From Bilabrum cf. latius (Eukaryota), in the NCBI GenBank assembly GCA_965178125.1, contig OZ237762.1, positions 496,001-560,000 of the forward strand: a DNA stretch of 64,000 bases. Direction: 5' to 3'. The position numbers and the translations under genes are program-made. The notes under the pieces were generated by a model, which saw only the letters and a list, made by a program, of their open reading frames with translations, was not told where the DNA came from and ran no database searches. This document shows, in pieces, positions 7,509-45,854 of this stretch (the first letter of the stretch is position 1; every line of letters begins with the position of its first letter).

Positions 7509-9131
7509 TTAAGTCCTATCCAGCGTCACCAGGACCAGCCCCCTGATCCCCAGCACCTCTTCCATCAAGGCCAGCCCTCCCTCCCCCTCCAGCAGCCGCA
7601 CCTGTTCCTCACCGAGTCCCTGCAGCAGGAACAGGGGAGAAAATAGCACCTTCCTGCGGGTCGCAGCTTGTTTCTGCTACTCAGTAGGGCTAGCAGTATC
7701 CTTGATGCTGACACGAGCGCAATCGGTGCTGCCCCTGGATGTGGACGACTGTTGGTGTGGAGGGCTCTGGATGCGGCCTGCTGCAGGTGGGGCGCTTGAC
7801 GGTGCTTTAGCTGGAACTAGCCCACCATGAGTGGGATTACGTGCTGCTTCCATCTCCAATCCGTTTGCTGATGCATTTCCAGCTTCGAACGATGCATCGG
7901 ACGGTGCCTGCCAGTGGATCGATGCCCATGCCTTGGCGTGGACCCGCCCGCGAGAGCCGGACGAGTTGGCATGCATCGCTGCACGGCTAACCGAGCTTTC
8001 AGCAGACAAAGCATCATTGCTAGACTTGTATTCTTTGCACGGCACCCGCATGGTGGATGCGTCACAGGTGATTGCCAGGACTCGTGAGGTTGTTCGCATC
8101 GGCGGCCTTCCTCCAGCGGTTGCTACTTCCGGCAGACGGATGGGCTGAATCTGCACCGCCAATTTATCCCCCCACGGTACGCATTGATGTGATATCGTCG
8201 CTTCAACCGAGGCTGCGCAGTCAATCTCACCGATAGATGCAAACTGTGTCGTACTGGATCCCATCGAGTAGCTACCGGTCAGATCGTGGCTGGCTGCGTC
8301 ACTATGCCCAGATTCAGTTGCAGCAAAACTCTTGAGTGTATCAACGGGTTCGGCTGACCGCTCTGTCGTTCTTGCTGGCGCGGGACGCATTGATTTCACG
8401 CCTGACGTTCCAACTGCAACTGCTGGCATACCTGTGCAGCCAGCGGGGGAGCTCGAAGCTACAGTGCCACATTGCATAGATTTAATCCCGCATTGTACTG
8501 ATCTTGTACTTGAGGTGGCTCTCTGCCATTCCAAAGCGGTGGGACCCTTGAACAGGCCCCTAGCTGTAGCAGACCTCTCTGCAAACCGCCCATTTTCGGC
8601 CCGAGAATCGCCATACATAATCGCATTGCGGGTCAGAGGGGCCTGTTCCTGCTACAAAACAATCTAGTGATGCGAGCTAGCGGCATGATGCTTTAAATTT
8701 TGAGCTTGGCCGACCTAAACACCTGATTCGCCGCACTCTCCGCGTTGCCGCAGCGCCTCGCTGTATCCTGCATTGCTCGTGCCAAACGAGCCGGCTATAA
8801 GGAGCTGTGGCTTAGCATCAAATACCGTGCTATATGCGATTACTTTTAGGTTGGTGCATGCATCGCTGAGACCACCAGTTGTGGCAGCCCCACCGCCAGC
8901 AGCCTAGGCCGGCCGATCTCCGCATGCTGGCACGCGGGATTGTTGCTGCGCCGTGTGCCACGGGGCCGCGTACAGGTTCCCTTGCAGCCAGAGTTCGAGT
9001 AAATTAGCGTCTTTTGGAGTTGGTTGGAAGAAGCAAGAGCTCTCGCTCGTGCGCGTGGCTCCAAGCACAACTGATCGGGCGATCGGCGCGGCATCACCTC
9101 GACTTGTCTTCTCCTCCCCAGCTCCCTGCAT
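7509..9131 (-). CDS. Unknown family member 1 (CFFQP...SPLF/EEVLG family), 540 aa with TAG read as sense
   Basis: N-motif VVLGATRTSESSCFFQPTPKDANLLELWLQGNL, mid-motif VIAYSTVFDAKP, C-motif SPLFLLQGLGEEQVRLLE...MEEVLGIRGLVLVTL. One frame, interrupted only by TAGs. Ends in TAA. Confidence 0.75.
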
Positions 9132-9413
9132 GCTCGATGCCCAAAACTATACAATCCAAAGAGCTTAATTTGAATCAAACTGACAAGGTATCCGCTTTTA
9201 AAAGTGAGATGGACCGCTTCTGAAGCAAGGATGGTGAAGAATTTGCGGGCATGTCGATCCGATACATCAAGCAAAACCCGGAAGAGGGAGAGGCACAGCC
9301 ACTGGCAAGCCGCAAGTAGCGCGGTGACGCGTCACATCCCATTCGGTACGCCACCAACCCTGCTGCGCCTGCTAGCAACAATGCGAATCAAGTATCGCAT
9401 GGTCGCATACCTC

Positions 9414-11000
9414 TTAGGAGCGTCCAGACCCGTCCAGCGTCACCAGGACCAGCCCCCTGATCCCCAGCACCTCTTCCATCAAGGCCAGCCCTCCCTCCCC
9501 CTCCAGCAGCCGCACCTGTTCCTCACCGAGTCCCTGCAGCAGGAACAGGGGAAATGCCCTGACGAGGAACAGTTCATGTTTCTGCGTTTTCTCTTCGTGC
9601 CTTGTGCCGGCAGCAGCGTGGGCAGGCACCAAGTCGTGCACCTCACAGTCTCCCACGGTGTCTCGCCATGGGGTGGTTGCTGCTGCTCTGGACCCGGCAT
9701 GCTAGCCACACCAGCCAGCTCGCCCGGCTCCAGCTGCGCCCAGCGGGCCCAGTGAAGTGATGCAGCGTGCTAGCACTTCTGCCTTTGGAAAGGAAACGCA
9801 CGGATCGAGCAGGAGCTCAAACCCCGGCATTGCATCCACACTTCCTGGGTGTGTGCTGGGCTAGGAAGCTGCTGTTCCAATGTAGCGAGCCGATCCAGAG
9901 CTCGTCGAGGAGCTGGTCGACAGTGCGACAGGTTCATGTGAAAACGAGCGAGTTGTGCCCTGGCTGTCGATTGCCTCTTCACTTGCAGCCCCACCTGTTG
10001 AGGCGCGCGGAATCGGATCGAGCGGTGCGCTTCTTCTGCCTGCGCTGCAATGCGAAGATTCTCCCGCTGGAACTTTGAGCTCTTCCTGGCTAAAGCCAGA
10101 ATCTGGCAGTATCATGGTGGCCAGTGCCTCCGCTTGCTCTGAGCTCGAAGGGCACGATGGGGGCGAGCAGCCTGCGCCACGCGGAGGTGGTGGCCTGGAC
10201 CGGCGCACGGCTCTGCAGCCCGACAACCAGACGGCCTGCCCGACAGTTCGGACGCTGCTCTTTTTCAGCGATGAACGCAATGCGTTGACGTCGTTGTGCA
10301 ACATGCTCCCGTTGAGAGGTTCGTATGGAGTGCTGGTTCCTGGTATGGCGCGGCTGGCCGGCCACGGCTTCTCTCCGTGCAGCTTGCCGCGCGCATCCTC
10401 CATGTGTGCAGGGGGTGACGTACCCGCTTGCTCGCCCACGGAAGGTATGTGGCGGGAGACCGGAGCACGGTTTGCGTCAAAGTCACTCGCAAAAGCGCCG
10501 TATGAACAAGCCTCCTACGCTTTGAGCGCACCGGGTGGCTCGGCGGGTCTGCCTGCATCCAGCCGGTGCCCGTCCGTCTGACTGCTGTGCCTCGTCCAGC
10601 TTTCGCGGGCTTTCGCGGGGATGCCAGTCACAGCGATGGTCCATGGCTTCGATTCGATCTCGGCTGCGTAAGAAAGTGCCCGAACGCGACCACGGCCGCT
10701 CTCTCCGGTGACTTCGGCAGCTCGCTCGACCGGAGCAGGGGTGCTAACGCCGCTCGAGTCTGCGCCTGCCGCGTGGCTTGGAGCACCAAAGGCACGAAGC
10801 TTCAAAGCCTTCCACGCACGAGGGTTAAGATTATCATTCATCCACCGCTAGAGAACGTTTGCGTCCCCGGAGGTAGGCTGAAAGAAACACTAGCTTTCTC
10901 GAGTTCGTACGGCCGCGAAAACAACAGCAGATTCGCGCTCGTCACCAAGATCCAAGCGATTTCCAGCCGAGCTGCGGCTGTCTGGCGCCTCCATTATCAT
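9414..11000 (-). CDS. Unknown family member 2
   Basis: VVFAAVRTRES*CFFQPTSGDANVL*RWMNDNLN, then ALSYAAEIESKPW, then FPLFLLQGLGEEQVRLLE...MEEVLGIRGLVLVTL. Single frame with TAGs only. Ends in TAA. Confidence 0.75.
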
Positions 11001-11723
11001 TTGAATGGCCCACCACGCCTCAGATGAGCCGTCTTGTTGCAACAGGGACGAACAGAATGGTTTCAGCCACGTCACCACGGGGCATACGTGTCCAGCAATG
11101 GCTGAGGCTACGTCCAGTATATTGCAGCAGCGCACACGTTACAGACCCGCACGCTACCATACCCGTAAATCGTGGCTATATATTGTGGTGGTTCGGGTTC
11201 GTCGCCACGCGGATGCAAGCTGGAGTGCCAGTGCAGCCAGTTGACACACAGTGCACTGGCAGTCTGTAGACTTGAGTGCCTCAAGCACACCAGCAAGAAC
11301 GTAAATCTGATATCAATTTCAGCATGCAATACCATCGCTCCGGTCCAGCGAAACCAGAACCAAGCCCGTCATCCCAAGCACCTGCTCGAGGATGCCCAGC
11401 CCGCCATTGCCCTCAAGCAGCTCCAACTGCCTCTAACTTAGGCCCTCCAAAAAGAATAGGGGTGAGACCTTGACTTCAAGCTATTCATCACCACCGTGTC
11501 CGCCGAAAGCATCCTCTGGGGCGGCCGAGCGACACTTCGAATCCGTCGGCCCCTCCCCGGGCCGTTTCGACCACCGGGAGGATCCATGCATAACTGCGCC
11601 ACCAGAGCGCCCGTTATCGCCAAGATTCGATGAGGAGCGCAGACTCGATTTGAGAGCCAATCTGTAGCCTGCCGATAAATCGCTGCTCCTGGTTGAGGCC
11701 ACATTCTTCGTCGTCGATTTGAG
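10843..11723 (+). repeat. ~880-bp direct repeat, left copy (right copy 21181-22067)
   Basis: Near-identical sequence starting caccgctagagaacgtttgcgtcc at 10843 and 21181. It contains the 5' end of family member 2, the intergenic region and the 3' end of member 3. Confidence 0.92.
11319..11723 (-). pseudogene. Duplicated 3' fragment of family member 3
   Basis: Encodes the C-terminal SPLFFLEGLS...LEQVLGMTGLVLVSL motif but has no N-terminal part. It abuts the ALAS-like sequence. Confidence 0.7.
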
Positions 11724-11818
11724 AGTCGATCCGCGGCGGCGGGGGCTTTACTTCTGCTGCCGGGGAGCATGGGCCGCATGTCGGGCAAGGGGAGGGAATA
11801 CAGCAAGGAGGCGCGTTA

Positions 11819-13551
11819 GTGTCTCGATACGAAGCCGGTTTCAAGCACGCCATCAGCTTCATCCGCCGCGAGGGCAGGTACCGCATGCTCCGCACCTTGG
11901 AGAGGCACCAGGCGAGGTCTTCCGTACATGACGCTGCATGGGGAGCAGGGAACAGCAGAGGAGGGAGCGCAGGAGGGCGAGACGAACGCACAACCCGAGG
12001 CCAGGGAGATCGTGGGCTGGTGCTCGAACGACTACTTGGGCATGGGCCAGCACCCGGAGGTGATCCGGGCGGCCGTGCAGACTGCAGTCGAGCAGGGCGC
12101 CGGGGCTGGTGGCACTCGAAACATCAGCGGCACCAACTGCGAGCACGTGAAGCTGGAGCAGGAGCTGGCAGACTTGCACTACAAGGGTGACGCGCTCATT
12201 TTCTAGTCGTGCTACATGGCGAACGACGCCGTCCTAACCACGCTGGCCAAGGAATTCCGCGGGCTGTACACCTCTGACGAGATGAACCACGCCTCGATGA
12301 TCCAGGGGATCAGGCGCTCGGGGGCGCCCAAGCACATCTACGGGCACAACGACGTGGAGCACCTGCGCGAGCTGCTGGCCAAGGCAGACCCCAGCACTCC
12401 GAAGCTGGTGGCATTCGAGTCGGTCAAATCGATGGAGGGCACGGTGGCGCCCATCCACGCGATCTGCGACCTGTGTGATGAGTTCGGGGCCATGACCTTC
12501 TGCAACGAAGTGCACGTAGTGGGGCTCTACAGGGACACGGTAGCGGGGGTGGAGGAGAGGGACGGCGCCATGGATCGGCTCGACATGATCACGGGGACTC
12601 TTGGTAAGGCCTACGGTGTGGCGGGGGGATACGTGGCTGGGAGCGCTGCCATGGTGGACGCCATGCAGCTCATGGCCAGCGGGTTCATCTTCACCACGGT
12701 CATGCCCCCGGCCAACGCAGCGGCTGCCACTGCCTCTGTCGCCCACCTGAAGAGATCCACCTGGGAGCGCCGCTTCCTGCACGCCAACTCGCAGCACCTG
12801 AAGCGGCTCCTGGTGGAGGCGGGCATCCCCGTCATGGACTCGGTCTCGCACATCGTGCCCGTGCTGGTGGTAGACGCAGCCAAGGCGCAGGCAGCCTCGA
12901 GGCTGCTGCTGGAGAAGCATGGCATATACATGCAGCCCATCAACTACCCCACGGTGCCCCGAGGCACGGAGCGGCTCCGCATGACCCCGACCCCCTTCCA
13001 CTCCGAGGCGATGATGAGGCAGCTAGTGGAGGCGCTGGGGCAGGTGTGGACAGAGCTGGGGCTGTCAAGGTCTCGCGTCTATCCCTCGGGCACCAAGGAG
13101 TACGCGGCAGTGCCCGTATCCCTCGGGCACCAAGGAGTACGCGGCAGTGCCCGTATCCCTCGGGCACCAAGGAGTACGCGGCAGTGCCCGTATCCCTCGG
13201 GCACCAAGGAGTACGCGGCAGTGCCCGTGTCCCTCGGGCACCAAGGAGTACGCGGCAGTGCCCGAGGAGGAGCACCTGCCGGCGGTGGAGTGGAGCGGGC
13301 CCGTGCAGCGGGAGGACGAGGACGTGTCGGCGGTGGAGCGGGAGAGGCACGAGGCCAGGGCGAGGGAGTTCCACGAGCAGGCGAGCGCGAGGGGGCGGGG
13401 CAGAGAGGTGCAGGGCGCGGCCGATGCGCTGCAGGATAGCGCGCTGTGGTGGGCGGGGGCGCAAGTCACAGCGAGGGGAACTGCGGCTGACGGGACGAGG
13501 GAAGCAGCAGCAGCGGTTGCTGGCTCAGACCGAGCGCAGGGCCAGATGTGA
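11819..13551 (+). pseudogene. ALAS: 5-aminolevulinate synthase (Shemin pathway), apparently decaying copy
   Basis: Motifs [73 protein letters not shown]. Lesions: frameshift near 11910; NEVHVVGLYR instead of DEVHAVGLYG; a 37-bp x5 array shifts the C-terminus out of frame. Confidence 0.8.
13079..13263 (+). repeat. Tandem repeat, 37 bp x 5
   Basis: Unit gtatccctcgggcaccaaggagtacgcggcagtgccc, head-to-tail with no spacers. Confidence 0.95.
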
Positions 13552-14073: not shown

Positions 14074-16475
14074 TCACACCTCGACAGGCCGTACAGCGGT
14101 ATCGGAATCCTTCCCTGCGTGCTTCTGCTCGCTTGCTTCATGTCGATGGCGCTTGCAGCAGTTGCAGAAGTAAACCAGGACGACGACGACTCCCAGAAGG
14201 ACAAGGGCGCCGACAACAGCACCCACCACGGCGGGAACTGGAAGGCCATCGCCGTCATTATCACCACCATCATCTGCAGCATCAGGGGAGTACGGGTTCT
14301 AGGCAGCATATACGGTGTCCTCCCTTGTCCGGTTAAACGACGCATTCTCGCCGAGCGTGTCCGCAAGCACAGGGGAGGCCAGGACGGTCTCGTAGGCACG
14401 CATGATGGGGGCAGCCTCGTCCAGCGACTCGAGCGGAGTCTGGAGCACCAGCGTGGTTTCTCCAAGGCTGCCGGTTTGAGCGCGTCGACTACGCCCTCTT
14501 CTGCCGCGGGACCGTTCAAACCATACAACCACTTCATCCGTTCTGGTGCTTGCCGCGGCTGCGAGGCTCCCAACGAGCGTCAGGGCAGCTCCACAGCTTG
14601 CCTCGGAAGGGTCGACGCCACGAATGGAGATCTCGTTGTGGAGCACGTGGGACTTCTGGCCGGCCAGCAACTGCTCACTTGGCTCCTAGCATTTCTGCAC
14701 GTTTTCCGGGCCCTCTGCCTCTTGAGTCGGCACTCGCCTTCCCCGCCTGGTACGAATTGGGACAGGTGGCAGCGCGCTCGGGCTTCCCGTGCTGATCGAG
14801 CCTCCACTCGGCAGAGGTGACGTAGAGGGACTGACAGATGCCGTGCTGGTTGTTGATGGCGACGGTGAGGCAGATGCCGTGCTGGTTGTTGATGGCGACG
14901 GTGAGGCAGATGCCGTGCTGGTTGTTGATGGCGACGGCGAGGCAGATGCCGTGCTGGTCGCTGATGGCGACGGCGAGGCAGATGCCGTGCTGGTTGTTGA
15001 TGGCGACGGCGAGGCAGATGCCGTGCTGGTCGCTGATGGCGAGGCAGATGCCGTGCTGGTCGTTGATGGCGAGGCAGATGCCGTGCTGGTTGTTGATGGC
15101 GACGGCGAGGCAGATGCCGTGCTGGTTGCTGATGGCGACGGTGAGGCCGATGGCGATGGCAAAGAAATGGTCGAGAAAAGGATCCACGCCGCCCCGCGAT
15201 CACCGCCTCCATCATCATCACCAGGAGCCCCGACAGCGATGTCTAGTGAGCCATCCCCATCCAGGTCACCCAGGGACGCAACCGAAAATCCAAACGTATC
15301 ACCGGCGCTCAGCTGTCCGGCGAAGTCGCCTTCGGTATCAGAGATTTTCTTGTGCGACTTCACGGTGCCGTCCGTGTTCAGGAACAGAATCCACGTGGCA
15401 CCGTGATTGCCTCCTCCATCATCATCGTTTCGAGCCCCGACGGCGATGTCTGTCGCGCCGTCTCCATCTAGGTCCCCCAGTGATGCGACCGAGACACCGA
15501 ACCAATCTTCATCGTCCAGCTGTCCGGCGAAGTCGCCTTCGGTATCAGAGATCTTCTGGTGCGACTTCACTGTGCCGTCCGTGTTCAGGAACAAAATCCA
15601 CGTAGCCCCACGACTGGTGGCTCTAAACGCATCATCGATGACGGTTCCTCCATCCTCATCGTTGGGAGCCCCGACAGCGATGTCTGTCGTGCCGTCTCCA
15701 TCCAGGTCCCCCAGTGATGCGACCGAGACACCGAACCAATCTTGATCGGTCAGCTGTCCGGCGAAGTCGCCTTCGGTATCAGAGATCTATTGATGCGACT
15801 TCACCGTGCCGTTCGTGTTTAGGAACAGAATCCACGTAGCTCCGCGAGCAGGGAATCCATCCACCTCGCTTGCACCGACCGCGATGTCTGTCGCGCCGTC
15901 TCCATCCAGGTCCCCCAGTGATGCGACCGAAGAACCAAAGAAGTCTTCATTGCTCAGCTGTCCGGCGAAGTCGCCTTCGGTATCAGAGATCTTCTGATGC
16001 GACTTCACTGTACCGTTCGTGTTTAGGAACAGAATCCACGTAGCTCCGCGATTCGTGCCTCCATCATCATCGTCGATAGCCCCGACGGCGATGTCCTTCG
16101 TGCCGTCTCCATCCAGGTCGCCCAGGGACGCGACCGAAGAACCAAAGAAGTCTCCGTCGCTCAGCTGTCCGGCGAAGTCGCCTTCGGTATCAGAGATCTT
16201 CTGATGCGACTTCACTGTGCCGTTCGTGTTTAGGAACAGAATCCACGTAGCCCCGCGATTCGTGCCTCCATCATCATCAAATGGAGCCCCCACGGCGATG
16301 TCCTTCGTGCCGTCTCCATCCAGGTCGCCCAGGGATGCAACCGAACGACCAAATCCACCTGCGCCGCTCAGCTGTCCGGCGAAGTCGCCTTCCGTATCAG
16401 ATATCTTCTGATGCTACTTGATGATATCTGTGCTCTCTGCAGAAGCACATGCCAGCATGGCCACCGCTAGTACGC
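14074..16475 (-). CDS. FG-GAP (integrin-alpha beta-propeller-like) repeat type-I membrane protein with Ser/Thr/Pro stalk; first exon not located
   Basis: Signal-like VLAVAMLACASA. Six repeats KISDTEGDFAGQL...FG.SVASLGDLDGDG..DIAVGA...RGATWILFLN, then a mucin-like stalk. Reading through TAGs at 15787, 14686 and 14299 reaches a clean TM helix AVVGAVVGALVLLGVVVVLVYF plus CNCCKRHR, and TGA at 14074. Confidence 0.85.
14835..15160 (-). repeat. Coding minisatellite (30/36-bp units) for the SPSPSTTSTASA stalk
   Basis: Repeated gaggcagatgccgtgctggttgttgatggcgacggt variants on the + strand. Confidence 0.9.
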
Positions 16476-16559
16476 TGCGAGTAGAGAATGAAAAATGTCC
16501 TTGAAATCGTGGACAGGTACAAGCTCGGGGAGATTAGGGTGCTGTGTACAACGTGTGAT

Positions 16560-16640
16560 CTCATCTGAGCCTGCTCCTCGAGCGGGTCCTGCGCCCACCA
16601 AGCGACCTCAATCTCAGAGACCTTGCTGGCCTCACCAACG
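16560..16640 (-). repeat. Dispersed repeat fragment (also ~43945-44033, and inverted at ~63001-63090)
   Basis: Shared sequence gagcgggtcctgcgcccacc.agcgacctcaatctcagagaccttgctggcctcaccaac, encoding VGEA.K.S.IEVA.WAQDPLE.QAQMR. Likely a transposable-element remnant. Confidence 0.75.
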
Positions 16641-17443: not shown

Positions 17444-18364
17444 ATCCGGAGTGATTTCATCGCTTGACGCTTCTACTAGCTGTTTTCAGTCCCTTGTAGT
17501 GAGTCTATTTCGACTGTATTGCACACTTACTACACACCATCATGGAAAATAAGTAATGCATATTGATAAGTGCGCGCGTAAGCCCCGTATAATTACTTTG
17601 ATTGAGTGTACGGGCCACACAAAGTTGGCGTCTCGGGGGCTCTGGCAGGCCTGCCTGTCGGCGAACCCATCGCTTGACGCTTCTCTCTTTCCGTATCATG
17701 CCTCCAATTAACGCTAATCTCCACCAAATCTTGCCTTGTATGAGTGAAACAGACAGATAGATCCATATAATGTATCAATTTGATCAATCCATCGAAGTTA
17801 CGTGCGACAATTTATGGAAAAGTGGGCTCACTGACGCCGGGCATAGCTGCCCAGTTAGAAGCGCCTTATCTAGCTATCGAGGGTTTTACGAATAGGCCAA
17901 GGATATATTCATGTAAACGAAATGGAAAATCTTGCCGCGCTACTTTGCTTACCAAGTATTGTATCCGTTGTTAGGCAACATGGGTGGTGATTCGAGGCAC
18001 GATTGAGAGTGCCGTCAAGTGTCATACCATGCCGGAAAAAGTCTCTATTTATATCATCTGTGCCCGAACAAAAGCTAGTTCAAACATATGGCGATGGTAA
18101 ACCTGCATTATATGATGCGGACGAGCTAGTGAGCCCTACCAGACTAACCAAGATTCAACTGTTGCGTAAAAAGGGTCAGCACAACATGAATATGAGACAT
18201 AAATGAGACAATTGCTTGCCAACATCTCAATATTGTCCATATAGATCTAGATTCGTGGACGAAATGCAGAGTTATTGCAATCTTTATGCCGAGAATGGCT
18301 CCAGGAGAAGCGTCAAGCGATGGGTTCGCACCGAGAAGCGTCAAGCGATGAAATCACTCAGGAT
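17444..18364. mobile_element. ~920-bp AT-richer element with terminal and subterminal inverted repeats (MITE-like)
   Basis: 17444-17474 is the reverse complement of 18334-18364 with one mismatch. 17661-17685 is the reverse complement of 18305-18329. Both pairs share the core catcgcttgacgcttct. No TSD or transposase recognised. Confidence 0.65.
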
Positions 18365-18371
18365 CTGCTAG

Positions 18372-27203: not shown

Positions 27204-27235
<32 letters not shown>

Positions 27236-33059: not shown

Positions 33060-34439
33060 CTCGTACTAGAGAACGTTTGCTGCGCTGGAGTATGGAAGGA
33101 AAGGCCTGGGGGATGGGAATCAATTCTTTCAATGCAGTGTCGCCGCAGCTAGGCGTCCAGATGCCACTAGCATTGGACTGGCTCAAGCCTCGCACACCCT
33201 GTTCACCTGCTGTTTACACTCGTATCTTGATAGCACACCACCCTGGTTTATAAGATGAAGTGAGGCGAAAGGATTCTCACGTTTGCTTTCTGCGTTTATA
33301 TGTCGCCCAACAAGTGCTGTGGGGACGCATGCGTTTTCGCGGAAGTCAATGCAATCGACAATTCCGGTTTTGACTAGCGTGCTACGGTCCGAGAACGACC
33401 AAAAGTTCTTGGTATCCCACGAGCATAAATATGGCATCAATACACCAATACATATCTCTTCCCAATGCAAATGATTGGATTGGTCCGCGCACAACGAGTG
33501 CGATGCCAGGCAGTCTAGCCTGCCGTCCCTGAGAGACGGGGTCCTGCCTTCCACCAGCGGTCCCGGGTGAAGCAAAAAGGCAGGACAAAGCTCTTTGGTG
33601 GGGCGGCGCTTCCGCCGGCCAGGCTCCGGGATGGGATTCTCACACCCAGTCCAAAAGGGAGCAGCATGCAGAGTTTTCGCAGGCTGGGCGGAGATACTGC
33701 TGGGTGGGCACTTAGGGCAGGCATACGGAGGCGTTGGGTCTAGGTGGCACTGCCCTCTGGCTTTGGGTGGAGCCACAGCTCATAGGGGCCTACCTGTGTG
33801 CCGAAGAGGCGCTGGATTGGGTAGAGTATCTGCTTCAGGACCTGGCCAAGTGCCACCAAAGCGCCGGAAGTCACACACGAGTGAGGGAAGGGGCAGTCGG
33901 ACGATGATTTCAAGAAGAAGATCCATATGGATCCAGGCACACTGGGGCAAATTTGATTGCGTTCATTGGTTATGTTCGCAAAGAGAGCCGCAGGCCCTCC
34001 CGGCATTTCAATCCAGAGTTTGTAGTGTGCAGAACGAACAGCTTCCGGCAAGGTGGGTGGGTCAATGCCACGGCATCGATCTATCAGAGAGTGAAAGCAG
34101 CAGTAAATGGCAAGCGCAGTAGCCGGATACGAGAATGCCGTGAGTAAGAAAGACAATGTTATGCTCTAGTAGGTTTGCAGTCATTGAAAGCAGCGTGGTC
34201 GCCATGGTCGGAGCGGTGCGCGTGGTGGACTGCCGTTTGGTGTGTGACAAAGCGCGATTGCGAGTGGCAGCAAGAGCGTTCGGGAGTATTATAAAGCTCC
34301 GATGCTTGAAAAGTAACTGATATCAACTAGGCTGCCTTTTTTGATATACTTATCGCAAATTCGTGTGTAGCTTCGGTAGATCGTGCACCACAAACGGATG
34401 CCCGCAACCACCTGGTGGTTTCACCTTTGCTCTCATCCC

Positions 34440-35774: not shown

Positions 35775-36023
35775 GCTGGTCCGAATCAGTAACGAGGAAA
35801 AGCGGCATTTGCTGCGCTTCGCAAGCACCTCGCTGCTGGAATCGTAAGGGAAACAGGGCAGGGGGTTGTTCTCCGTACCCGTGGCATGAAATGTGTTTCG
35901 CGGAAGTCGATCCGGTCCGGCTCTAGTTCCGGTTTTAGGCTCCCGACGGGCCCGGGTGCGACCACGAGTGTTTCGTTGAACAGGAAAAAGAGGTCATAAG
36001 CAAGAATTGTCAGAAAAGCAGTC

Positions 36024-38135
36024 TCACTGATTCGGCTCAAGCACAACGAGGACGATACCGCTCAGCCCGAGCACCCGCTCAATCACTGGAAGACCGCCCT
36101 CCAGCATCACCACCTGCTCCTTGCTGAGTCGGTCGATGAGGAAAAGCGGGGACACCGGCACAAGGTATTCCTACATGTCTGTAGCGTGCTGATGCGGTGC
36201 CTCACGCTGTGCTGCCCTACGCGCCTTTGGAGGGGTGGCGTCGAGCTCGCCTCGAAAAAGACCTGCAGCCTACGTGTCTCCTCGGCCATCTGTGCTCGAT
36301 GGGTGGCTTATTCGTCCAAACTGGCCACATTGAGTTGTATTCCTATCGATGTGGTGCTTTGACCATGCATTGGACGAACCTTGGCCAGCCTCGCTGTCTG
36401 TTGCAGGCTATGCTCGCCCAGGAGCACCTGCTCCACTGAGAGCTCGTTCGACACCGGTGCGTCCAAATTGCGGTGCTCTCGACCCACTGAGAGCTCCATG
36501 AGCACTGGCTGAATCTGTCCCATCGTTGTCCTGGTGTGGCTCCCCGGCAGCGGCACCAGGCTTGCCGGAAGCGAGCTCGCAGAAGCAAGTGCCACGCTGC
36601 TCCACTGGCAGAGCGTGGAACCGGTCTGACGTCACGGTGACACGTTTCACCGGTCGCATGTTTCTTTCCGAGCAAATTTCTCGGAGAGATGGCTCGGCTG
36701 CCTTTACTTGCTCGCATGATTGCTCGGGGCATGGATCGCTTTTGGAGTGCGGCCTCTTCCTCATCCTCGCAGCCGAGCCTCCAAGCGCACGCAGCTCGTT
36801 CGAAATCGCAGGCTCGGATTCTTCGGAAGGCGAGCGATGCATCACCTCGAGACTACCGCCTGAGAAACTCCTGAGGCGAGCACCGGCAGTTGTCCTGCTC
36901 GCGGCTTTGCTCGGCGTTGCTTCATCACCGCACGCTGCCGGCCGGGCACTGCCAGCGCCTGCCGGTGCCGACGCTGATTGCTGCATCGACTGCGGCATGG
37001 GGACCAGCTGCCTGGCCTGTATCCCGCTCTCATCTAGAGCTCCGGATGATCGCCTGCGAAGGGTGCCAGGGTGGCATAGCAGTGCTTTGAGCTGCAGCTT
37101 GGCTGACGCGCGCAGCCAGTGCCGAGGCCGGGAGTTTCTGCGGGCAGGCGGGCTGACGCTGGCAGCATCAGCCGAGCGTTCTGAAAGATGCCTACTCGCC
37201 CCTGTTCGATCAAAGGGTGGCGACTCTGGCCTGCGAGCAGTCCCGTCTTGTTCTGATGTATTGCTGGCCGAGCGCACCTTGCGTTGCGAAGCAGCTTTGC
37301 CATCGGCAGCACTGATTGCCTCAGCCGCCGGCGATGGCGCCATCGGCTTTGCCGCTCGGCCCCAAGCCCTGCTCTCGATTGCTCCATGGATTTCGCGGCC
37401 TGAAGGAGCAGAGCAGGTCACGCCATCTTCGCTTACTGCAGAGAATGCAGAAGTAGAATCTGGCATGGGGCTCCTCGGTGAAGCGGAGCATCGGCTTGGC
37501 TCTCGTCGCGACCTTGAGCTGCCAGCCACAGAGCTTGCGAGCGATCCTCCCGTTGAGAGTTGCTGAAGTGGTTCGACTGCGCCCCCAGTTCTAGCGTGGG
37601 CACCGCCTGCTCGCGTCTATCCTGAGTATTTAGAAAAAGTAGACGCCTGGGCAGCAGGCATGTCTTGATATGGGCGACAGGAATCCTGCTGGCTCTTGGT
37701 GTCAACGCTTCCTGGCTTGCGTGCGCAATCGGTCGTTGCTGAATACCGCGTCGTCGCCGCCACCGGCTGGTGTACCAGAAGGTGCCAGGTGTAGTAATCC
37801 AATGAGCCGGAATACCCATGAACACAGATTTGAGCGTTGAGTGCACGCTCGCGGGTAGAGGTACGCGGCTTCTATCCAGCCGAGCCATTGGTGTCTTTGC
37901 TCGCCAAGCGCGACCATGCAGCGCGATTCAGATGCGATCTGAGCCAGTCTTGAAGGACGTTTTTCTCCGGTATAGATGGCTGGAAGAAAATGTTGCTTCT
38001 CTTTGTCCGCCGTGCAGCGATCACGACTGCGTGTAGGAAAGACTTCTTGCGAGCTCGGACGGGCCCAGCTGCCAATGGTTGCTTCGGCTTGCTATCCTCC
38101 GAGCGAGAATCACGTCGACGATGGGATACGTCCAT
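36024..38135 (-). CDS. Unknown family member 7 (703 aa)
   Basis: VVIAARRTKRSNIFFQPSIPEKNVLQDWLRSHLN, ICVHGYSGSLDYYTW, and VSPLFLIDRLSKEQVVMLEGGLPVIERVLGLSGIVLVVL. TAG-only interruptions. Ends in TGA. Confidence 0.8.
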
Positions 38136-38524
38136 GTTCTTGTTCGAGTGGTTTTCAGAAATGCGCCAACACAATTTGTTAGAGTCCGTATCAGTGGCTA
38201 GTTTGGCTGCCGATCTAGTTGCCGACCGGCGACTATATAATGTGCGGCTGTACCAGGTCTCTTCGTTGTCGCAGCGGAACACAGCAAGTTGGTATCAGAT
38301 AAATCCCGAGAACACCGACCTGCTTGCAATGAGTAATGTCAAAGTGAGCTTTGCCCATCTATTCCTGTTGTGGGTGCCGATTGCTGCTGCAGCACCCGGA
38401 ACAGTGGCAGTTCAATCACTTGTCAATAAACAAACAAGCAGCCACTGCTGCTGTCATGTAAACACTGACCTTTGCTAAATAGAGGTGGGCAAACGTGCAA
38501 ATATAGCCGCGGGAGTTGCCGTCA

Positions 38525-40615
38525 TCACGATTCTGGCAGCGACGACACGGTCACCAGCACGAGACCCACCAAACCAAGGACTTCTTCTAATGTCTCGATG
38601 GATTCCGGGGCATTGATCCGGTCAAGCTGCGATGCATCAAGACCACTGACGTAGAAGAGCGGGGACACGGGCAGCTCGAGCGTGTCAGGCTCGTCGACTC
38701 CGCGCGAGCCTCCCTGGCTGCCCAAGTACCTGGCAGCAGGAAGCAGCTGAGCATGGGCCGCTGGCATGCGCCCCGATGTGTGGGACCTGGGACGCCAGCG
38801 CGGAATGCGCTTCTCATGCGATGCGGCTCCTGTTTCGAATCGGGGAGCACAGTCCGGGCTGGACAGTGCTCGCCTCGCCCTCATTGGCTTGCCCCCCATG
38901 GTCACGCCGAGCACGCGAGCAACTGCACCGGCCCCAGCCGCCGCTGCTGCTTCTGGCAGATTGATGAGCTCCTACCAACCCGGTTCTCTGGAAGCACTCG
39001 ATTTCAAAATGGAAGATCTGACCTTGTCCTCGCTGGCATTCGTGGGGGTCCCGCTGGCCCCACATGTTGCCGAAGCTGCCACGCCACACTCATCAGCCTG
39101 AACAAACAAGGACGGGAGAGCACCCGTCACCTGCGGCGGGTCCCCATGCATCGGCGAGGACGACAATGTTTTCGAGACGTGCACTAAATCGTCCACTGGA
39201 GTGCTTGATGCTCGCAGCACGCAGGCAGCAGCAGGTTGTGCATCACTGCTGCCGCCTTTGCAGGACCCTGAGATGCGCCCCGCCTCGTTCGTAGTCGCCA
39301 TCATCATCGTTGTCTAGCTAGCCACAGGGCCAGGAGGGGAGCCCTTGCCGCCAGCTCTACCGGTGATGCTGCTGCTCGAGGATGAGCATGCCGGCCTTGA
39401 GCACTTGCTCGCAGCTGAGGACGACTTGCCAGTGGTGCTCGCCCTTGTCTCGCCAGCACCTGGAGGTAAAGTTGTAGTGCTGCTTCGCTGTTGGTTGCGT
39501 TCGCCATGCTGGATGCCTACTCCTGTGGCTGCACTGCATTGCACGGTTTCGTCACCTTGGCCCTCTCGTCGGCTCGCTAGACCAGCCTGGTCAGGAGCAA
39601 TCGTAAGCGCTGCCAGCACCAGGGGTGTGCCCGGCTTCACCCATACCTGCTCGCCTGACGCGGTCCTCGCCATAGCTGCAGCGGATCCTGCAGCGGGTGT
39701 GATTGCCGGCCTCAGAGGGGAGGACTCCTGCCCTGCAGACCCTGACGCGAGCCGTGCTTCGGAGATACTGGCATTTTCTGCGGCGGCATGCATACTACTG
39801 ACGACCTCTGCTGCGCCAGTGTGCCGATATTCCGCATCGTCCTGCAGCTAGACTTGGTGTGGCTGGTCGGTTCGTGCAGATACCTTCGTAGAGGACCTGC
39901 TTCCACTCGGTTGGGTCGATTTGGATTCGTGCAGAGAAGGTTGGCATTCTCCGCTCCCTTGTATTGTTTTATTGGGAGGCCGCCATCTAGACCAGAGACT
40001 GCCTCTCGCCGAATCCGAAACGGTCGCCGATCTCTCCAAGCGAACAGTCGCAGACTGCATGCAGCTCTCTAAAAGCATTGATCCAGGCACAATATCAGCT
40101 TTAGTGGAGGCCGCTTCCTATAAATACGCTGCAGATCCCCCAAAGCGCCGTCTGCAGCGCTCGCGGGAGACAGCCTATCGGCGATCGCCGGCGCTAGCGA
40201 CAAAGTTTGATTGCCAGACCCTAGACGGGTCCATGCCGCGGCACTGCTTCGCATCGTCGAGGTGAAGGACCCATGGCTTTGAATCTACAGTCGTTGAGTA
40301 GGAGTGCGCTCGTACTCGATTCACGACCTGTGGTGCGGCGTCTGCAGGCTCGATTGTTCCCGATCTATGTGATGTTCTAGCAGCTTTGCTGGACTATCGA
40401 GCTTCGGGCTCTCGCCCAGCACCGTCCTAGTCCAGGGCATTGTGACGTTGTAGCAATATGTTTACTCTCAGCCACTCTTCTAACGCCTTGGAGTCGGCGG
40501 GAGACGGCTGAAAGAAGCACGTGCTCCGCATTGTTCGGCTGGCTGCAAGCACGATGGATCGTGCAGGGTCCCTCATAATGTCGTCCGTTTCCAGCTAAGC
40601 AGCAGATTCTCCCAT
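38525..40615 (-). CDS. Unknown family member 8
   Basis: IVLAASRTMRSTCFFQPSPADSKALEEWLRVNI, VRAHSYSTTVDSKPWVLHLDD, and VSPLFYVSGLDASQLDRI...LEEVLGLVGLVLVTV. Ends in TGA. Confidence 0.8.
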
Positions 40616-40822
40616 ACCGGACCGGTTGATTTTCATCACTTTTACGTGCTTGTTTGTCTGAAGTGCTCAGTTTAGTCGTGAGTGCGTCCGTACGCAAGGC
40701 CCATGGGTCACACCTAGTCACACACAGTGTGACGACTAGAAGTTTATTGCCGAAGGTTACTATGAATTTACGAGCTAGTTGTAGCTGCAGCCTTTTTATA
40801 ATTCTTCACAATGTGCGGAACG

Positions 40823-42838
40823 TCAAGCCACGGGCAGCGACGACACGGTCACCAGCACGAGACCCACCAAACCAAGGACTTCTTCCAATGCCTCGATGGA
40901 TTCCGGGGCATTGATCTGGTCAAGCTGCGATGCATCAAGGCCACTGACGTAGAAGAGCGGGGACACGGGCAGCTCGAGCATGTCATTCCCGTCGACTCCA
41001 GGGGAGCTTCCCTGGCTGCCCAAGTACCTGGCGGAAGGAAGCAACTGGGCGTGGGCCGCTGGCATGCGCCCCGATGTGTGGGACCTGGGACGCCAGCGCG
41101 GAATGCGCTTCTCATGCGATGCAGCTCCTGTGTCGCACCGGGGAGCACAGTCCGGGCTGGACAGTGCTCGCCTCGCCCTCATTGGCTTGCCCCCCATGGT
41201 CACGCCGAGCACGCGAGCAACTGCACCGGCCCCAGCCGCCGCTGCTTCTTCTGGCAGATTGACAAGCCCTGGATGGTCCGCCGCATGGTCCGTCGAGTTG
41301 CTGCGCTTTGTGGGTGGTGAGCCGCACCCGCTGCGAGGTGGCGAGGTGCTCAGCAAGGCGCCCTCCTAGGCCACTTTCATGGGAGAGGACGGCAGCGCAT
41401 GCGACAGTTCGTCGCGCATTGGAGTGCTCGGCGCTTGCGGCTCGCGCGGCACACCCAGGGATGGAGGCATGCGCTCGGTTACAGAGCGACTATTCAAAGT
41501 GCACGAGCCACTAGGGACCCCGCCGCTGCCTCTGCCGATGCCGGTGCCGCTTCTACTGCTGCTGCTTGTGCTGGTGGTGACCGAGCACGCCGACATCGAG
41601 CTCTTGCTCGAGTCTAAAGCAGTCGCTTCGCTTGCTTCTCGTACTACTCCAGTGCAGTGTTTTGCCGCTTCTGTAGGGGCACCGCATTGCTATGCACTAT
41701 CGTCACGGCCGAATGATCTTGTGCCTGCACTATGCTACTCAGGCGCAATGCCAGTGGAGAGAGCCGTCAACACCAGGGGGGCCTGTGCCTGCGGCTTCAC
41801 CCAGACCGGGTCACCTGACTTGCTCCTGGCTGGAGCTCCCGCGGATTTTTCTGCTGTCCTCGTTGCAGTGGGAACGATCGCTGGCCGCAACGGCGAGGCT
41901 GAACCGCCAGCAGCAGCGGTACTGACCGTCCCAGCCGAGGGTACTTCTTGCGGCTCTCCGTCACAGTCATCGTCAGTCATATTAGCTACTGATAACGTGG
42001 GCCCCGGAGATTCAAGCGCTGCAGCACTCCCCCGATCCCAGGGCAACCCACCGTGGATCGCTCGTCCGCCTGCCCATGAACAGCCCTCCGCTCCGGCGGT
42101 GAGACCGCTGCGATAGGGAGAGCCAACCGCGCTTAGATTAGCTCTAGTATCTCCAAGCCTTCCAGGAGCGACTTCAGATACCCACTGCGATATGTCTTGC
42201 CTTTTGTCTTGCTCTGCCACAGATGACCAATCAGCGCGAACAGTCGGCGTGCTTCTGCGAGTGCTACTTTCTCCTCTTGCCATTGCCACGGCCTCCCTCT
42301 CCGTCACAGACGACCCCCGGTTTTGCACGCGTGTCGTATACTGCCCAGTGCGCCAGCGGCTGCGTTCGCGTACGGCAGTGTGGTAGCTGCCACCGCCGAT
42401 GACGTGATCCTCTAGACCACTTCGTCTGCTCGAGGCAGCACTGCGGTACTCCCTCGAATCGTCAAGATGCAAAATCCATGGCTTCGAATCAATTGCTGTA
42501 GAGTACGAGTGAACCAGTATGCTACATTTCTTTTTCTGCAGGACGGCTGCACCACTGACTGTTCCTGATCCAATGGTTCTACCGGGTGAGCGAGCCGATT
42601 GCGCAGCACGTCCAGGCATGACGCTGCCGCTGACCAGCAAAGAACTTGCCTGCGGCAGTATGTGAACCCTTAACCACTCCTAGAACGCCCTAGAATCGTC
42701 AGGCGAGGGTTGGAAGAAGCAAGTGCTCCTCAGTGTTCGGCTTGCGGCCAGAACGATTGAGATTGTACAGCCTGCCATGCCGTTTCCCGTCTAAAGCTGT
42801 GCTGCAGATTCCTCATGCTCACATCTAACATGTACCAT
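40823..42838 (-). CDS. Unknown family member 9 (tandem paralog of member 8; alternative ATG at 42778)
   Basis: IVLAASRTLRSTCFFQPSPDDSRAF*EWLRVHI and LVHSYSTAIDSKPWILHLDD. The 3' ~430 bp are nearly identical to member 8. Ends in TGA. Confidence 0.8.
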
Positions 42839-42954
42839 ACTAGCAATTCGTGGCTTTTGGCAGCTTTTTACAACTTGTGTGGGTGTGTGACAAGGGGAAG
42901 ACCCGCGCATTCCGTCCGCGACACATCGCCGAACCTTCGTTCTCTCTCTCTCTC

Positions 42955-43926
42955 GGCACCCCCGGGGTGGTTTGCCCCACGGGGTGGTCGTTGCAGTTGG
43001 GTAGTGTGTGCTTTGATACAGATATATCTATTCTCTCTCGGCATCGCGAACGGTTCGACCTGCCCAGCGCGATTGCCTCTTGGGGTGGTCGTTGTAGTTG
43101 GGTAGTGTGTGCTTTGACTCAGACATATTATATTCTCTCTCGGCATCGCGAACGGGTAGTGTGTGCTTTGACTCAGACATATTATATTCTCTCTCGGCAT
43201 CGCGAACGCAGATGGACCGCAAGCAGCGCAACTCCCCCACGGAGGAGCGGCCCAGCTTGCGGAGCCCATGGCGTGAGCTTGCTGATCCGTTCGACCTGCC
43301 CAGTGCGATTGCCTCTTGGGGTGGTCGTTGTAGTTGGGTAGTGTGTGCTTTGACTCAGACATATTATATTTTCTCTCTCTCGCACCTGCCTTAACGCTTG
43401 TGAGCTGCTGAAGCAGAGGGAGGCAACCGGCGCACAGGGAGCGGCCGCAGCAGGAGCTGGTGGTCAGGTGGGAGAGCTGGCAGCGGGAGTTGCGCAGCTA
43501 GGAGTGGCACTACAGCAGGCTGGTGGAGCTGGTGGTGCGTAGGGTTTGGATGCAGCTGGAGCGCCAGCTGTGCCCGCAGTACCTGCTGCAGCTGCAGTAG
43601 GAGCTGAGGGTGCAGCACCGGACGAGGCGGCTGATTCGAACGCAATCGAACACGAAGGCATCGCGAACGCAGATGGACCGCAAGCAGCGCAACTCCCCCA
43701 CGGAGGAGCGGCCCAGCTTGCGGAGCCCATGGCGTGAGCTTGCTGATCCGTTCGACCTGCCCAGTGCGATTGCCTCTTGGGGTGGTCGTTGTAGTTGGGT
43801 AGTGTGTGCTTTGACTCAGACATATTATATTCTCTCTCTCGCACCTGCCCAGTGCGATTGCCTCTTGGGGTGGTCGTTGTAGTTGGGTAGTGTGTGCTTT
43901 GACTCAGACATATTATATTCTCTCTC
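42955..43926 (+). repeat. Head-to-tail stack of six 3'-coterminal repeat units of different lengths at a (TC)n tract
   Basis: Each unit ends gggtagtgtgtgctttga(c/ta)...tat(t)tctctctc (ends at about 43038, 43141, 43195, 43381, 43840, 43926). Units range from ~55 to ~460 bp and share nested 5' parts. Confidence 0.85.
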
Positions 43927-44180
43927 GCACTCCTCCGCATCGCTACGTCGCATCTGAGCCTGCTCCTTGAGCGGGTCCTGCGCCCACCGAGCGACCTCAA
44001 TCTCAGAGACCTTGCTGGCCTCACCAACAAGGATCCATCAGATCCATTTTTAGCACAAGAAGATGGCTGAATTTTGGTCGGAATCGTTTCGACGCTACAT
44101 TTGGACAACTGTACTGGAACCCTCAAGTATTGAGAAACATCTGCTTTCTCCGTTGCTAGTTCTGGAAGGTGCAATGGTAA

Positions 44181-45854
44181 TCAACTCGGCCAAACATCTG
44201 CACCTACTAGAATCAGAACTAGGCCGGCGATGCCCAGCACCTCTTCCATCACAGCCATTCCATTCTCGAGCATGTCAATCTGAAGTGGGTGCAGGTTATC
44301 CAACAGGAAGAGCGGGGACACAATCGCTACCTTCCGTGTTTTCCCACGTCTGTGTGTCGTTGCATCGACCACAGCAGGGCCCGTGCTCTGGCTTCTACGA
44401 GCTCTGTCAGTTCCGTCCGGTTCTAAGCTTTGCTCTAGGGAAGAACGCTTCATGCCTGCGGTGCTATCTCTTGTTCCTGCTCTCCGATGCGAAGACAGAC
44501 GCGAGATTGTGGCATCCTCTGACTGGCACCGCCATCGAGGCCCCGGCCTGGCAGAACGGGCGCCCAACTTGTTTCTGTCGAACAATTTGATCGGAGAACA
44601 TGCCACGATGCCCTTGATCTCAGCTCGGAGCACATTTCGTCGCTATGCCAGCATGTCTCCGCTTTGCCCCGCGGCTGCTTCGTATGCAGCCGACAGGCTG
44701 CTGCCTTCGTTGGAGGATTCTTCTGCTGCAGTTGTCCTGCCAAATTCGCTGTCGTGACATCGCTACGAGCGGACTTGTGCCGCACCGGCCCCTGTGCGAT
44801 CGGTTCCCACGCACGGCGACGGTTCTTGCCTGTAAATAGAGGAGGTCCACGACACTGGCAGCTCAATCGTACGCCCTGAGGCCGCTCTCCAGGAAATATG
44901 CTCGCGCAAATGGTCTCGGCTGGGCCTGCGGCTCTTAGTACTTGGTCCCGGCGGAGTGCCCGCGCCGTGCTTGGCTCGTTCACGTTCCGCAGCCTGAGGG
45001 CTCGTCGCTTGTCCTTGTCTGACTGGCTTGCTACCTGCGCCTGCTTCATTTTCTAGGCCTGTATGACTAGAAAGTCGCGTTTCACCATCACTGCCTGTCT
45101 CTGCGTCTGTTGCGGCCGCTGTGCGCGGCGCAGCCGGAGCTTTGCTATGTGGAGTGGCATCGTCAGTCGCCTCTGATTTGGGCAACGAAGCACCCGATCC
45201 GCCGGTTCCTGGCTCAGAGAGCACATCGCGCACTAGACCTTCATGCATGTGCCCTGCTACTGTTGCTCGGGGCGCATGGGCACTCTCAAACGTAGATTGT
45301 CCCGGGTCACCAGCTGCAGCATCAAGCGAACCTTGCTATGGAGCGGCCAGCCCAGTAACAAATCCATGGACCCAACTCGGACTACTTCCAACATGTGAGA
45401 TATCACCAATGACAGATCGAGTCCTTGACGCGTCTACAAGTGTTGTAGCAGCGGCATATGACCCCAGCCGCTTCTCAGGGTCCGTTCGCTCCTTTGGTGT
45501 ACGCAGCCCTGACGGTGGCCTTCTAGGCCCCAAGCCAGCTGTTTCTTGAACAGAAAATTCATGTTCAACGGGAATCTTCTGCGTGCTCTTGTCTATAGGC
45601 GCCAAGTACGGGTAAACTCGCATCGATACCCAATCGCCGGCCTGTCCCACACGGTGCTCCTCTTGTGCTGCTTCAGGCCCAGCAGGCGGGGTGGTTCCAA
45701 TCAAGGATGGCCACCTACGCGGATTCAAGTTGCGGTGCAACCACTCTTGCAAGACATGTGTATCATCGCGTCCTGGCCGGAAAAAGCATTTGGAGGCATC
45801 CGATCGGCTGGCCGCGAGAATTGCCACTCTTCCAACCTTGGATGGCCCCACCAT
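44181..45854 (-). CDS. Unknown family member 10
   Basis: AILAASRSDASKCFFRPGRDDTHVLQEWLHRNLN, MRVYPYLAPIDKS, and VSPLFLLDNLHPLQIDMLENGMAVMEEVLGIAGLVLILV. TAG-only interruptions. Ends in TGA. Confidence 0.8.

Follow-up and report, generated by a model that had tools for sequence, protein, structure and literature searches.

What kind of genes are ten long open frames that come into view only when TAG is read as a sense codon? The question is raised by a stretch of 64,000 nucleotides of DNA (hereafter the window) from Bilabrum cf. latius, positions 496,001 to 560,000 of contig OZ237762.1 in assembly GCA_965178125.1, where ten co-oriented frames of 428–751 amino acids (aa) are found on the minus strand once TAG is translated as glutamine. 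A sequence-only reading had described them as ten minus-strand open reading frames (ORFs) of about 430–750 aa belonging to an unrecognised family, with conserved ends that may fold together and a hypervariable linker between them, and the number, strand and lengths of these frames are borne out. The explanation that is given slightly more than even weight here is that of a clade-restricted, tandem-duplicated coding array with ten intact and two truncated copies, the protein ends of which would clasp each other whilst the loop between them makes contacts. With each frame begun at the first ATG that precedes the N motif and followed to the stop codon, the members, called m1 to m10, are placed as follows.

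7509–9131, minus strand: m1, 540 aa, stop TAA; N region 8778–9083, C region 7512–7658
9414–11000, minus strand: m2, 528 aa, stop TAA; N region 10614–10937, C region 9417–9572
21657–23261, minus strand: m3, 534 aa; N region 22920–23222, C region 21660–21821
26497–28752, minus strand: m4, 751 aa; N region 28399–28704, C region 26500–26655
28946–30616, minus strand: m5, 556 aa; N region 30206–30508, C region 28949–29158
31773–33059, minus strand: m6, 428 aa, the shortest member; N region 32718–32987, C region 31776–31916
36024–38135, minus strand: m7, 703 aa; N region 37758–38039, C region 36027–36170
38525–40636, minus strand: m8, 703 aa; N region 40244–40567, C region 38528–38683
40823–42838, minus strand: m9, 671 aa; N region 42449–42769, C region 40826–40981
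44181–45854, minus strand: m10, 557 aa; N region 45552–45836, C region 44184–44336

All ten share one layout, in which an N region of about 95–100 aa and a C region of about 45–50 aa are separated by a linker of 267–581 aa. Eight of the frames end in TGA and two in TAA, and four of the gaps between members are spacers of only 186–389 bp. The three shared motifs reported earlier are present in every member, as seen in a MAFFT alignment and in a scan with hidden Markov models (HMMs) of the two end regions. In the alignment the residues A..R...S..FF.P followed by W in the N motif, Y in the second motif and LF....L...Q....E.VLG..G in the C motif are invariant in all ten; the majority of these residues are apolar (A, F, F, P, W, Y, L, F, L, V, L, G, G), the others being R, S, Q and E. 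When relatives are added, over 13 N and 13 C regions, only R, S, FF, P, W and Y are left of this core at one end and LF, E, G and G at the other. The HMMs, the building of which had been proposed as a check, were run against the window in all six frames; the N-region profile matches the ten genes at E values of 6e-27 to 8e-38 and the C-region profile at 4e-20 to 1e-22, and beyond the ten genes and the two fragments listed here nothing falls below E=1.

11337–11480, minus strand: orphan copy of the C region, left from the 3′ part of an m3-like gene; score 63.1, equal to that of the m3 C region, with no in-frame N region upstream
21183–21272, minus strand: orphan N-motif fragment, the 5′ fragment of an m2-like gene; profile positions 2–31, E 1.5e-12

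Both fragments sit within an 887-bp direct repeat (10843–11723 and 21181–22067, 96.8% identical), which duplicates the 3′ end of m3 along with the spacer and ~158 nt from the start of m2, and they are thus remnants of a rearrangement rather than free-standing motifs. The repeat splits an m3–m2 pair that was once adjacent, which points to a segmental insertion, a rearrangement or an artefact of assembly.

The claim that the frames are visible only with TAG read through is upheld, as none of the ten is open from end to end under the standard code and no long frame then crosses the loci. Each member carries two to eight in-frame TAG codons (51 in total), and among 21 ORFs of the window about 100 in-frame TAG codons are set against not a single in-frame TAA or TGA, the ORFs themselves ending in TGA (18) or TAA (3). 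Some of these TAG codons occupy glutamine columns of the motifs, namely in CFFqP (m3), in VLq (m2, m4, m5 and m9) and at three places in the C motif. Opposite the member TAG codons, orthologue-like protein fragments from the databases have Q at two of the three positions covered and Y at the third, whilst a TAG in the neighbouring ALAS gene aligns with a Ser of bacterial ALAS and is uninformative. Judged from its sequence, the organism apparently has a nuclear code that reassigns TAG alone, to glutamine, and keeps TAA and TGA as stops. A TAG-to-glutamine code is termed 'genetic code 15' in the abstract of PMC9523058, and PMC5304391 deals with a nuclear code that gives UAG and UAA different meanings. 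TAG is rarer in housekeeping genes with a high GC content at third codon positions (GC3), such as those for the aldo-keto reductase (none) and ALAS (three), than it is in the family; the bulk GC of the window is ~58% and its introns are of the GT..AG type.

The linkers could be either coding sequence or introns, and the reading frame separates the two. Across 4226 linker codons there is no in-frame TAA or TGA, whereas the remaining two sense frames contain 55 and 104, and the chance of meeting no stop at the out-of-frame rate is about e^-80; the TAG counts are 33 in frame and 30 and 53 out of frame. The N and C motifs, furthermore, share one frame in all ten genes. Introns need neither property, and so the linkers are translated. 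Codon-position structure is also present, with G at 38% of first positions and C at 37% of second positions. The expectation of linkers of 250–600 aa rich in S, A, G and R is matched both in length and in composition (S 13.9, A 13.9, G 9.8 and R 8.9%). Residue frequencies follow those predicted from base composition (r=0.85), with an enrichment of S (×1.66), A (×1.46) and D/E (×1.35) and a depletion of Y (×0.46), N (×0.51), W (×0.64) and I/L (×0.73), a shift that resembles the composition of disordered regions. Eight of the ten members are basic (pI 8.6–10.1). The linkers had also been called unalignable, which is mostly right, although in composition-corrected BLASTP the m8/m9 pair, and that pair only, aligns at E<=0.01. 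The linkers of m8 and m9 can be aligned across 375 columns, and short islands, among them VW(V/L)(K/E)P..PLV and NLP(E/Q)AAA...ARV.GVT....RARR, are common to m3, m7, m8 and m9.

Evidence for transcription comes from public sequencing runs containing the window, which were compared over positions 26400–46399 and none of which is on record as RNA. Three of these, X5, X8 and X9 from two studies, give gene-sized contigs with a depth of 0 to 449, and in both X5 and X9 a joint within a rhodopsin gene, 34803>35004, skips 200 nt with GT..AG borders. The DNA-like run X6 has a single contig of even depth (31794–39737), which retains the 34803>35004 stretch. On account of the splice-like joints and the patchy, gene-sized cover, X5, X8 and X9 are read as behaving like RNA. 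The coding region of m7 lies wholly and without gaps inside an X5 contig (35994–38182), and a colinear, gap-free X5 contig (28963–30628) contains all but the last 17 nt (99%) of the coding region of m5. For m4 the cover consists of 27243–28807 and 26413–26788 in X5 and of 27243–28791 and 26445–26782 in X8, with the contig break falling at a skipped Ala/Ser repeat, and m10 is covered in part by the X5 contigs 44335–44948 and 45487–45895. The member contigs are colinear with the genome and have no differences from it, and only one splice is seen in the members.

30629–30798, minus strand: intron of 170 nt in the 5′ untranslated region (UTR) of m5, GTGAGT...AG; joint 30628>30799 (CT..AC on the plus strand) in an X5 contig

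The orientation of this intron identifies the minus strand as the one transcribed. The description of the genes as intronless is therefore correct for the coding regions of m5, m7 and most of m4, and incorrect for m5 as a whole. For m4, m5, m7 and m10 the contigs, taken as RNA, run against both the idea that the loci are untranscribed and the idea that the linkers are spliced out. In X5, X8 and X9, m6 has no cover and m8 and m9 have next to none, and an uncovered part says nothing about expression. Overall the genes appear to be expressed. Two observations weigh against this view: the kind of run is not on record for X5, X8 and X9, with X5 being labelled 'probably DNA', and the GC3 of the members (0.51–0.63) lies close to the bulk GC and under the values of the housekeeping neighbours (0.70–0.85), which fits low expression or weak constraint.

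The relatives of the family are few. In hmmscan searches of Pfam-A with the ten members no family was matched at E<=0.05; with the limit set at E=1, eight of the ten remained without a match, and the two weak matches that appeared (E 0.14 and 0.065) fall far short of the family cut-offs. An exhaustive HMMER search of 1.84 billion cluster representatives with the N-region profile returned six proteins at E<=1e-3. Four of these are orthologue-like fragments, namely P0001 (81% identical to m1), P0002 (89%, m10), P0004 (68%, m8) and P0005 (87%, m4). The fifth, P0003, is a full-length relative of 602 aa with both motifs, and the sixth, P0006, is the first 153 residues of a complete member on a metagenome contig (L001; 5133 bp, GC 54.9%), which bears three co-oriented tandem members with in-frame TAG codons.

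L001, 1–1029: 3′ part of a member
L001, 1631–3310: complete member
L001, 3682–5133: 5′ part of a third member, which runs off the contig

L001 consists solely of family members, whose coding regions lie about 600 and 370 bp apart. Arrays are thus found in two organisms; a more distant relative has the family, its tandem layout and the code as well, and L001 suggests that large arrays exist elsewhere. Neither P0003 nor the three L001 products has a Pfam-A match at E<=1, so that the absence of a recognisable domain extends to 14 members. A sequence search of the PDB with the N and C profiles gave best E values of 0.23–0.6, which is chance level, and the N region of P0003 found nothing usable in the ESM Atlas (best feature score 0.77, structure TM <=0.38). 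A word-indexed protein search, for which the full-length alignment was used near the member lengths and the N alignment at longer lengths, gave nothing at E<=0.001, and this is weak evidence since P0003 was not recovered, low-complexity words probably crowding the index. The motifs match no known domain and no protein of a transposable element (TE) in Pfam, in the 1.84 billion proteins or among the PDB sequences, and as judged by these libraries the family is a lineage-restricted orphan without a described relative, a literature search for it not having been made.

The ends of the four orthologue-like fragments bear on why so little of the family has been catalogued. Two of the eight ends coincide with a member's own start and three fall at a member TAG (the ends of P0001, P0004 and P0005), whilst the start of P0005 lies just after a member TAG and both ends of P0002 lie at non-TAG codons of m10, a pattern that mostly fits a standard-code gene caller halting at TAG. 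The family is invisible to such callers and of the members described here the databases hold only fragments, most of them bounded where members carry TAG. The case shows how much lineage-specific gene content a missed variant code costs.

The members are 20–28% identical overall (20–27% when compared with m1), and in a tree of 12 members the terminal branches amount to ~2–3 changes per site; m8 pairs with m9 (100/100) and m1 with m2 (92/92), the tree being otherwise unresolved. The paralogues are evidently old. Their 3′ ends tell of more recent events, as m1 and m2 share 120 bp of C-motif DNA at 100% identity (7519–7638 and 9433–9552) and the 3′ ends of m8 and m9 are 94.9% identical over 430 bp, with a dS of 0.12, where the N-region dS is near saturation. 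In both pairs the 3′ ends appear to have been homogenised recently by gene conversion.

The proposal that the terminal motifs fold together as one split domain was approached by modelling. An AlphaFold2 (AF2) model of m6, made with an alignment of the ten paralogues, has a per-residue confidence (pLDDT) of 72–93 at residues ~27–70 and ~92–110, of 75–91 at 382–425 and of below 50 at 112–381, with a pTM of 0.40. The N part is formed of a strand (27–34), two helices (47–60 and 63–69) and two further strands (92–95 and 105–110), and the C part of a strand (382–396), two helices (398–406 and 408–415) and a final strand (420–425). In a VIA-align comparison of this model with 48,161 chains, 50 rows of which are listed, four chains reach Z>=5, the best being the first RRM of U2AF65 (Z 5.3, root-mean-square deviation (rmsd) 3.3, 81/83 residues), followed by protocadherin MAD12, Cas6, YajQ and many RRMs. 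A second structural comparison gave U2AF65 at Z 5.1 and the UHM of SPF45 at Z 4.5 (rmsd 3.5, 85 residues aligned). RRM-type domains make up about 20 of the 50 listed rows, counted by title. All 50 reach from model residue ~24 to 425–428, with 74–128 residues aligned, and as they span both ends the N and C parts constitute one compact ferredoxin-like unit in the m6 model.

Several results weigh against this packing. Foldseek found no match for the m6 model in the PDB at E<=0.001, and a Z of ~5 is below the informative level of the tool, for which the best Z is typically 7–8 even where no real match exists, so that 'RRM-like' may be only a common arrangement of elements. The co-fold depends on a single model from a 10-sequence alignment of paralogues, and the AF2 model of P0003, made from an alignment (A8) of patchy and in part misaligned fragments, has a mean pLDDT of 45.5 and no strands, its C-terminal helices being confident on their own. 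A two-chain prediction with the N and C regions of m10 scored 0.00 with its alignments unused and is evidence neither way. The split-domain idea is thus favoured by one model, which packs the two ends around a disordered middle, but not by the second, which has no sheet, nor by a Z of ~5; co-folding into one ferredoxin- or RRM-like domain is plausible but unproven, the model-based case being about evenly balanced.

The alternative that survives best, though it is a good deal less probable, is that the N and C regions are independent modules, the N region being a small alpha/beta unit or a binding motif and the C region an amphipathic helix-turn-strand for oligomerisation or pairing, possibly with the N region of another copy. 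The C-terminal helices of the P0003 model (pLDDT 86–94, in a model with neither a sheet nor an ordered N region) are consistent with this, as are the homogenisation of the C region apart from the N region in m1/m2 and m8/m9 and the weakness of the structural matches of the co-folded m6 model. However, N and C occur together and in frame in all ten genes, in P0003 and in the complete L001 gene, and the only orphan copies are explained by the 887-bp duplication. Moreover, the m6 model packs N and C with confidence and every listed structural alignment needs both, whilst by itself the N part, which has three strands and a single helix, would leave the sheet incomplete.

It is improbable that the members are tail-anchored membrane proteins, held by the C-terminal VLGLxGLVLVxL with the disordered region in the cytosol. 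The C motif is the most hydrophobic 19-residue window in all ten members (Kyte–Doolittle 1.34–2.22, and at least 1.6 in seven of the ten) and is situated within 3–25 residues of the C terminus. However, this window includes two conserved acidic residues (EE/EQ), the variable positions of LGxxGL are occupied by R, K or D in m1, m2, m4 and m6, the unbroken apolar run is just ~7–15 residues long, where a single tail-anchoring helix would have about 18–22, and AF2 depicts the segment as a helix, a turn and an edge or core strand of a sheet.

Less probable again is a variant or contingency family, antigen- or effector-like, in which the linker is the hypervariable part under selection. The tandem array, the gene conversion tracts, the very divergent middles and the TE fragments within the cluster would all suit such a family, and the sequence-only reading had seen in the linkers a fast-evolving region under diversification. 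Selection measured region by region does not agree. For the m8/m9 pair, by the Nei–Gojobori method, the N region has an omega of 0.15, the old part of the linker one of ~0.6 (where changes are saturated and the alignment is poor), the recent linker tract one of 0.39 (8 synonymous and 9 non-synonymous changes) and the C region one of 0.36, all of these values being below 1. In the orthologue-like pairs the linkers are kept about as well as the N domain, with 30/36 identical residues in the linker against 86/102 in the N region for P0001/m1, and 78/92 against 64/72 for P0005/m4, or 83–85% against 84–89% over the parts covered. The composition of the linkers, as described above, also largely tracks that of the bases. 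The linkers of paralogues are unalike because the duplications are old and the constraint is lax, and they would best be described as a disordered spacer with a few short motifs under relaxed purifying selection, with no positive selection demonstrated. Nor does a hydropathy scan reveal an N terminus resembling a signal peptide, the best 10-residue window within the first 35 aa being conserved strand 1 rather than a leader, which speaks against a secreted or surface family; the proteins are most likely intracellular.

The last alternative, that the frames are non-functional (decaying copies, TE-derived ORFs or chance frames in GC-rich DNA), has in its favour the GC3 of the members, the long antisense ORFs that are common in the window under TAG=Q and the nearby reverse transcriptase (RT) element and TE fragments, and is close to refuted by the lack of linker stops against 159 in the two other sense frames, the shared frame of the N and C motifs, RNA-like contigs that match the gene limits, the N-region omega, the retention of the family in relatives and in a second array, and the lack of any Pfam match of the members to an RT, a transposase or another TE family, so that the view of these as functional genes holds.

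For the clasped tandem array preferred here, the following course may be pictured. Old tandem duplication, segmental rearrangement and 3′-end gene conversion would have shaped the array. The two ends would pack into a small ferredoxin-like or RRM-like alpha/beta domain, an architecture that is held to be about as probable as its absence, and this packing would turn the mildly basic, disordered middle, rich in S, A, G, R, P and T, into a long closed loop. The clasp domain might then act as a constant module for binding or assembly, and the loop, with its subfamily-specific short islands and basic patches, might provide contacts specific to each paralogue, so that the protein might perhaps serve inside the cell as an adaptor or scaffold, possibly in association with nucleic acid. 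Tentatively, the family may represent a new split ferredoxin-like 'clasp' architecture confined to a small clade of eukaryotes with TAG=Gln, with a repertoire of loops that could serve, for example, in multivalent RNA or protein scaffolds, and its N and C motifs may be the signature of a new domain family. Should the co-fold be real, a small domain has long tolerated an insert several times its own size and a repertoire of disordered loops is held at both ends, which bears on the tolerance of domains to insertion and on the evolution of intrinsically disordered regions; apart from that, it is a common sort of orphan family of a protist about which little is known.

The array is interspersed with other genes and repeats, of which the following are the more prominent.

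11769–13490, plus strand: ALAS gene
14074–16464, minus strand: FG-GAP repeat membrane protein
18207–20780, plus strand: RT-bearing element, RVT_1 ORF (E 9e-12)
23511–24761, minus strand: glycoside hydrolase family 56 (hyaluronidase) homologue, between m3 and m4 (Pfam E 1.2e-75)
34490–35995, plus strand: microbial (type I) rhodopsin gene, between m6 and m7 (Pfam Bac_rhodopsin E 4.6e-26)

The first three of these form a 9.46-kb block that is flanked by the copies of the 887-bp repeat. At the 3′ end of the ALAS frame, the stop of which is provisional (13080–13264, plus strand), there is a tandem duplication with an offset of 74 bp (111 bp, 99% identical), which repeats a 25-residue peptide directly after the conserved core of the enzyme. 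RT-less fragments related to the RT ORF are found at 24850–26154 (plus strand) and as an inverted pair at 25563–26384 and 53743–54562 (90% identical), and the RT-related pieces are retroelement debris in and around the array. A TE origin of the members themselves (LINE ORF1p, RT or transposase) was considered and rejected, as they have no Pfam match of this kind and their 20–28% identity is not TE-like; the sole RT ORF and the fragment at 24850–26154 lie on the opposite strand and are single occurrences rather than one per member. Glycoside hydrolase family 56 is found mainly in animals, and its presence is hence unusual for a protist-like genome.

The rhodopsin gene has the greatest depth among the genes compared with the public runs. 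Its 200-nt GT..AG intron (34804–35003) is seen in X5 and X9, and X9 adds two GT..AG joints upstream, 34139>34449 and 34517>34777. A repeat of ~81 bp is present at 16559–16639, at 43948–44028 and, in reverse, at 63006–63086, the copies being 88–96% identical. Near the copy at 43948–44028 the depth in the RNA-like runs is very high (<=449), and past 44028–44035 many contigs continue into differing sequences. This repeat, which has no Rfam match, could be a dispersed repeat, an exon common to many transcripts or a piece that is trans-spliced or derived from a TE; a dinoflagellate-type spliced-leader motif is absent. The whole window contains no tRNA gene and no Rfam family. m9 and m10 are separated by a spacer of 1.3 kb, in which 42945–43927 is taken up by short repeats, both nested tandem and dispersed (83–99% identical), and a long ORF upstream of the m9 ATG passes through them. 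Further along, at 54709–62271 (plus strand), a single frame of 2520 aa with 24 in-frame TAG codons encodes RCC1 repeats, TIG domains and C-terminal membrane-like segments, and this product is likewise invisible under the standard code.

Of the known systems with which the family can be compared, the RRM/UHM superfamily has an order and a packing of elements that the family model matches. Measured against the beta-alpha-beta-beta-alpha-beta fold of an RRM, with its four-stranded antiparallel sheet, the m6 model gives a Z of 5.1–5.3, which is below the informative range, with an rmsd of 3.2–3.3 over 81–82 residues, and the P0003 model is sheetless. The family differs in that none of the 14 members has a Pfam RRM match at E<=1, and in that the model shows an additional strand ahead of its final helix pair and the domain is split by an insert of 267–581 aa. 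RRMs carry RNP2, [ILV]-[FY]-[ILV]-x-N-L, on strand 1 and RNP1, [RK]-G-[FY]-[GA]-[FY]-[ILV]-x-[FY], on strand 3; both are absent from the family, whose strand 1 reads (V/I)VLAA(R/S)R and whose strand 3 reads KPWxLxV, and this too counts against an RRM-like clasp on nucleic acid. A UHM is marked by R-x-F behind its second helix and by the acidic character of its first, whereas the C region of the family, EEVLG(L/I)xG(L/I)VLV, is without R-x-F and the first helix of the family, VLQxWLRxNL, is not acidic; the SPF45 row is the sole structural match to a UHM. Other ferredoxin-like domains (ACT, PII-like, Cas6/RAMP, MAD12 and the dimeric alpha+beta barrel) have equal fold scores (Z 4–5.3), but none of these stands out and none has sequence similarity, and the family has no conserved catalytic or ligand-binding residues.

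An analogy in layout is offered by XPG/ERCC5, a single-copy nuclease with catalytic acidic residues in which the N and I nuclease regions are parted by a spacer of several hundred residues. As is proposed for the family, two distant conserved halves form one fold around a poorly conserved, disordered spacer; unlike XPG, to which it has no homology, the family is multi-copy, is without a catalytic signature and has its halves at the extreme ends of the protein. The tandem multigene families of protists, finally, resemble the array in their co-oriented copies, short spacers, gene conversion, TE fragments and confinement to a narrow clade, although the members described here have no signal peptide or clear transmembrane segment by hydropathy, no sign of positive selection and old paralogues. 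In kind the array is familiar: an orphan family in tandem, specific to a clade, whose fold is probably a common one and whose insert is disordered.

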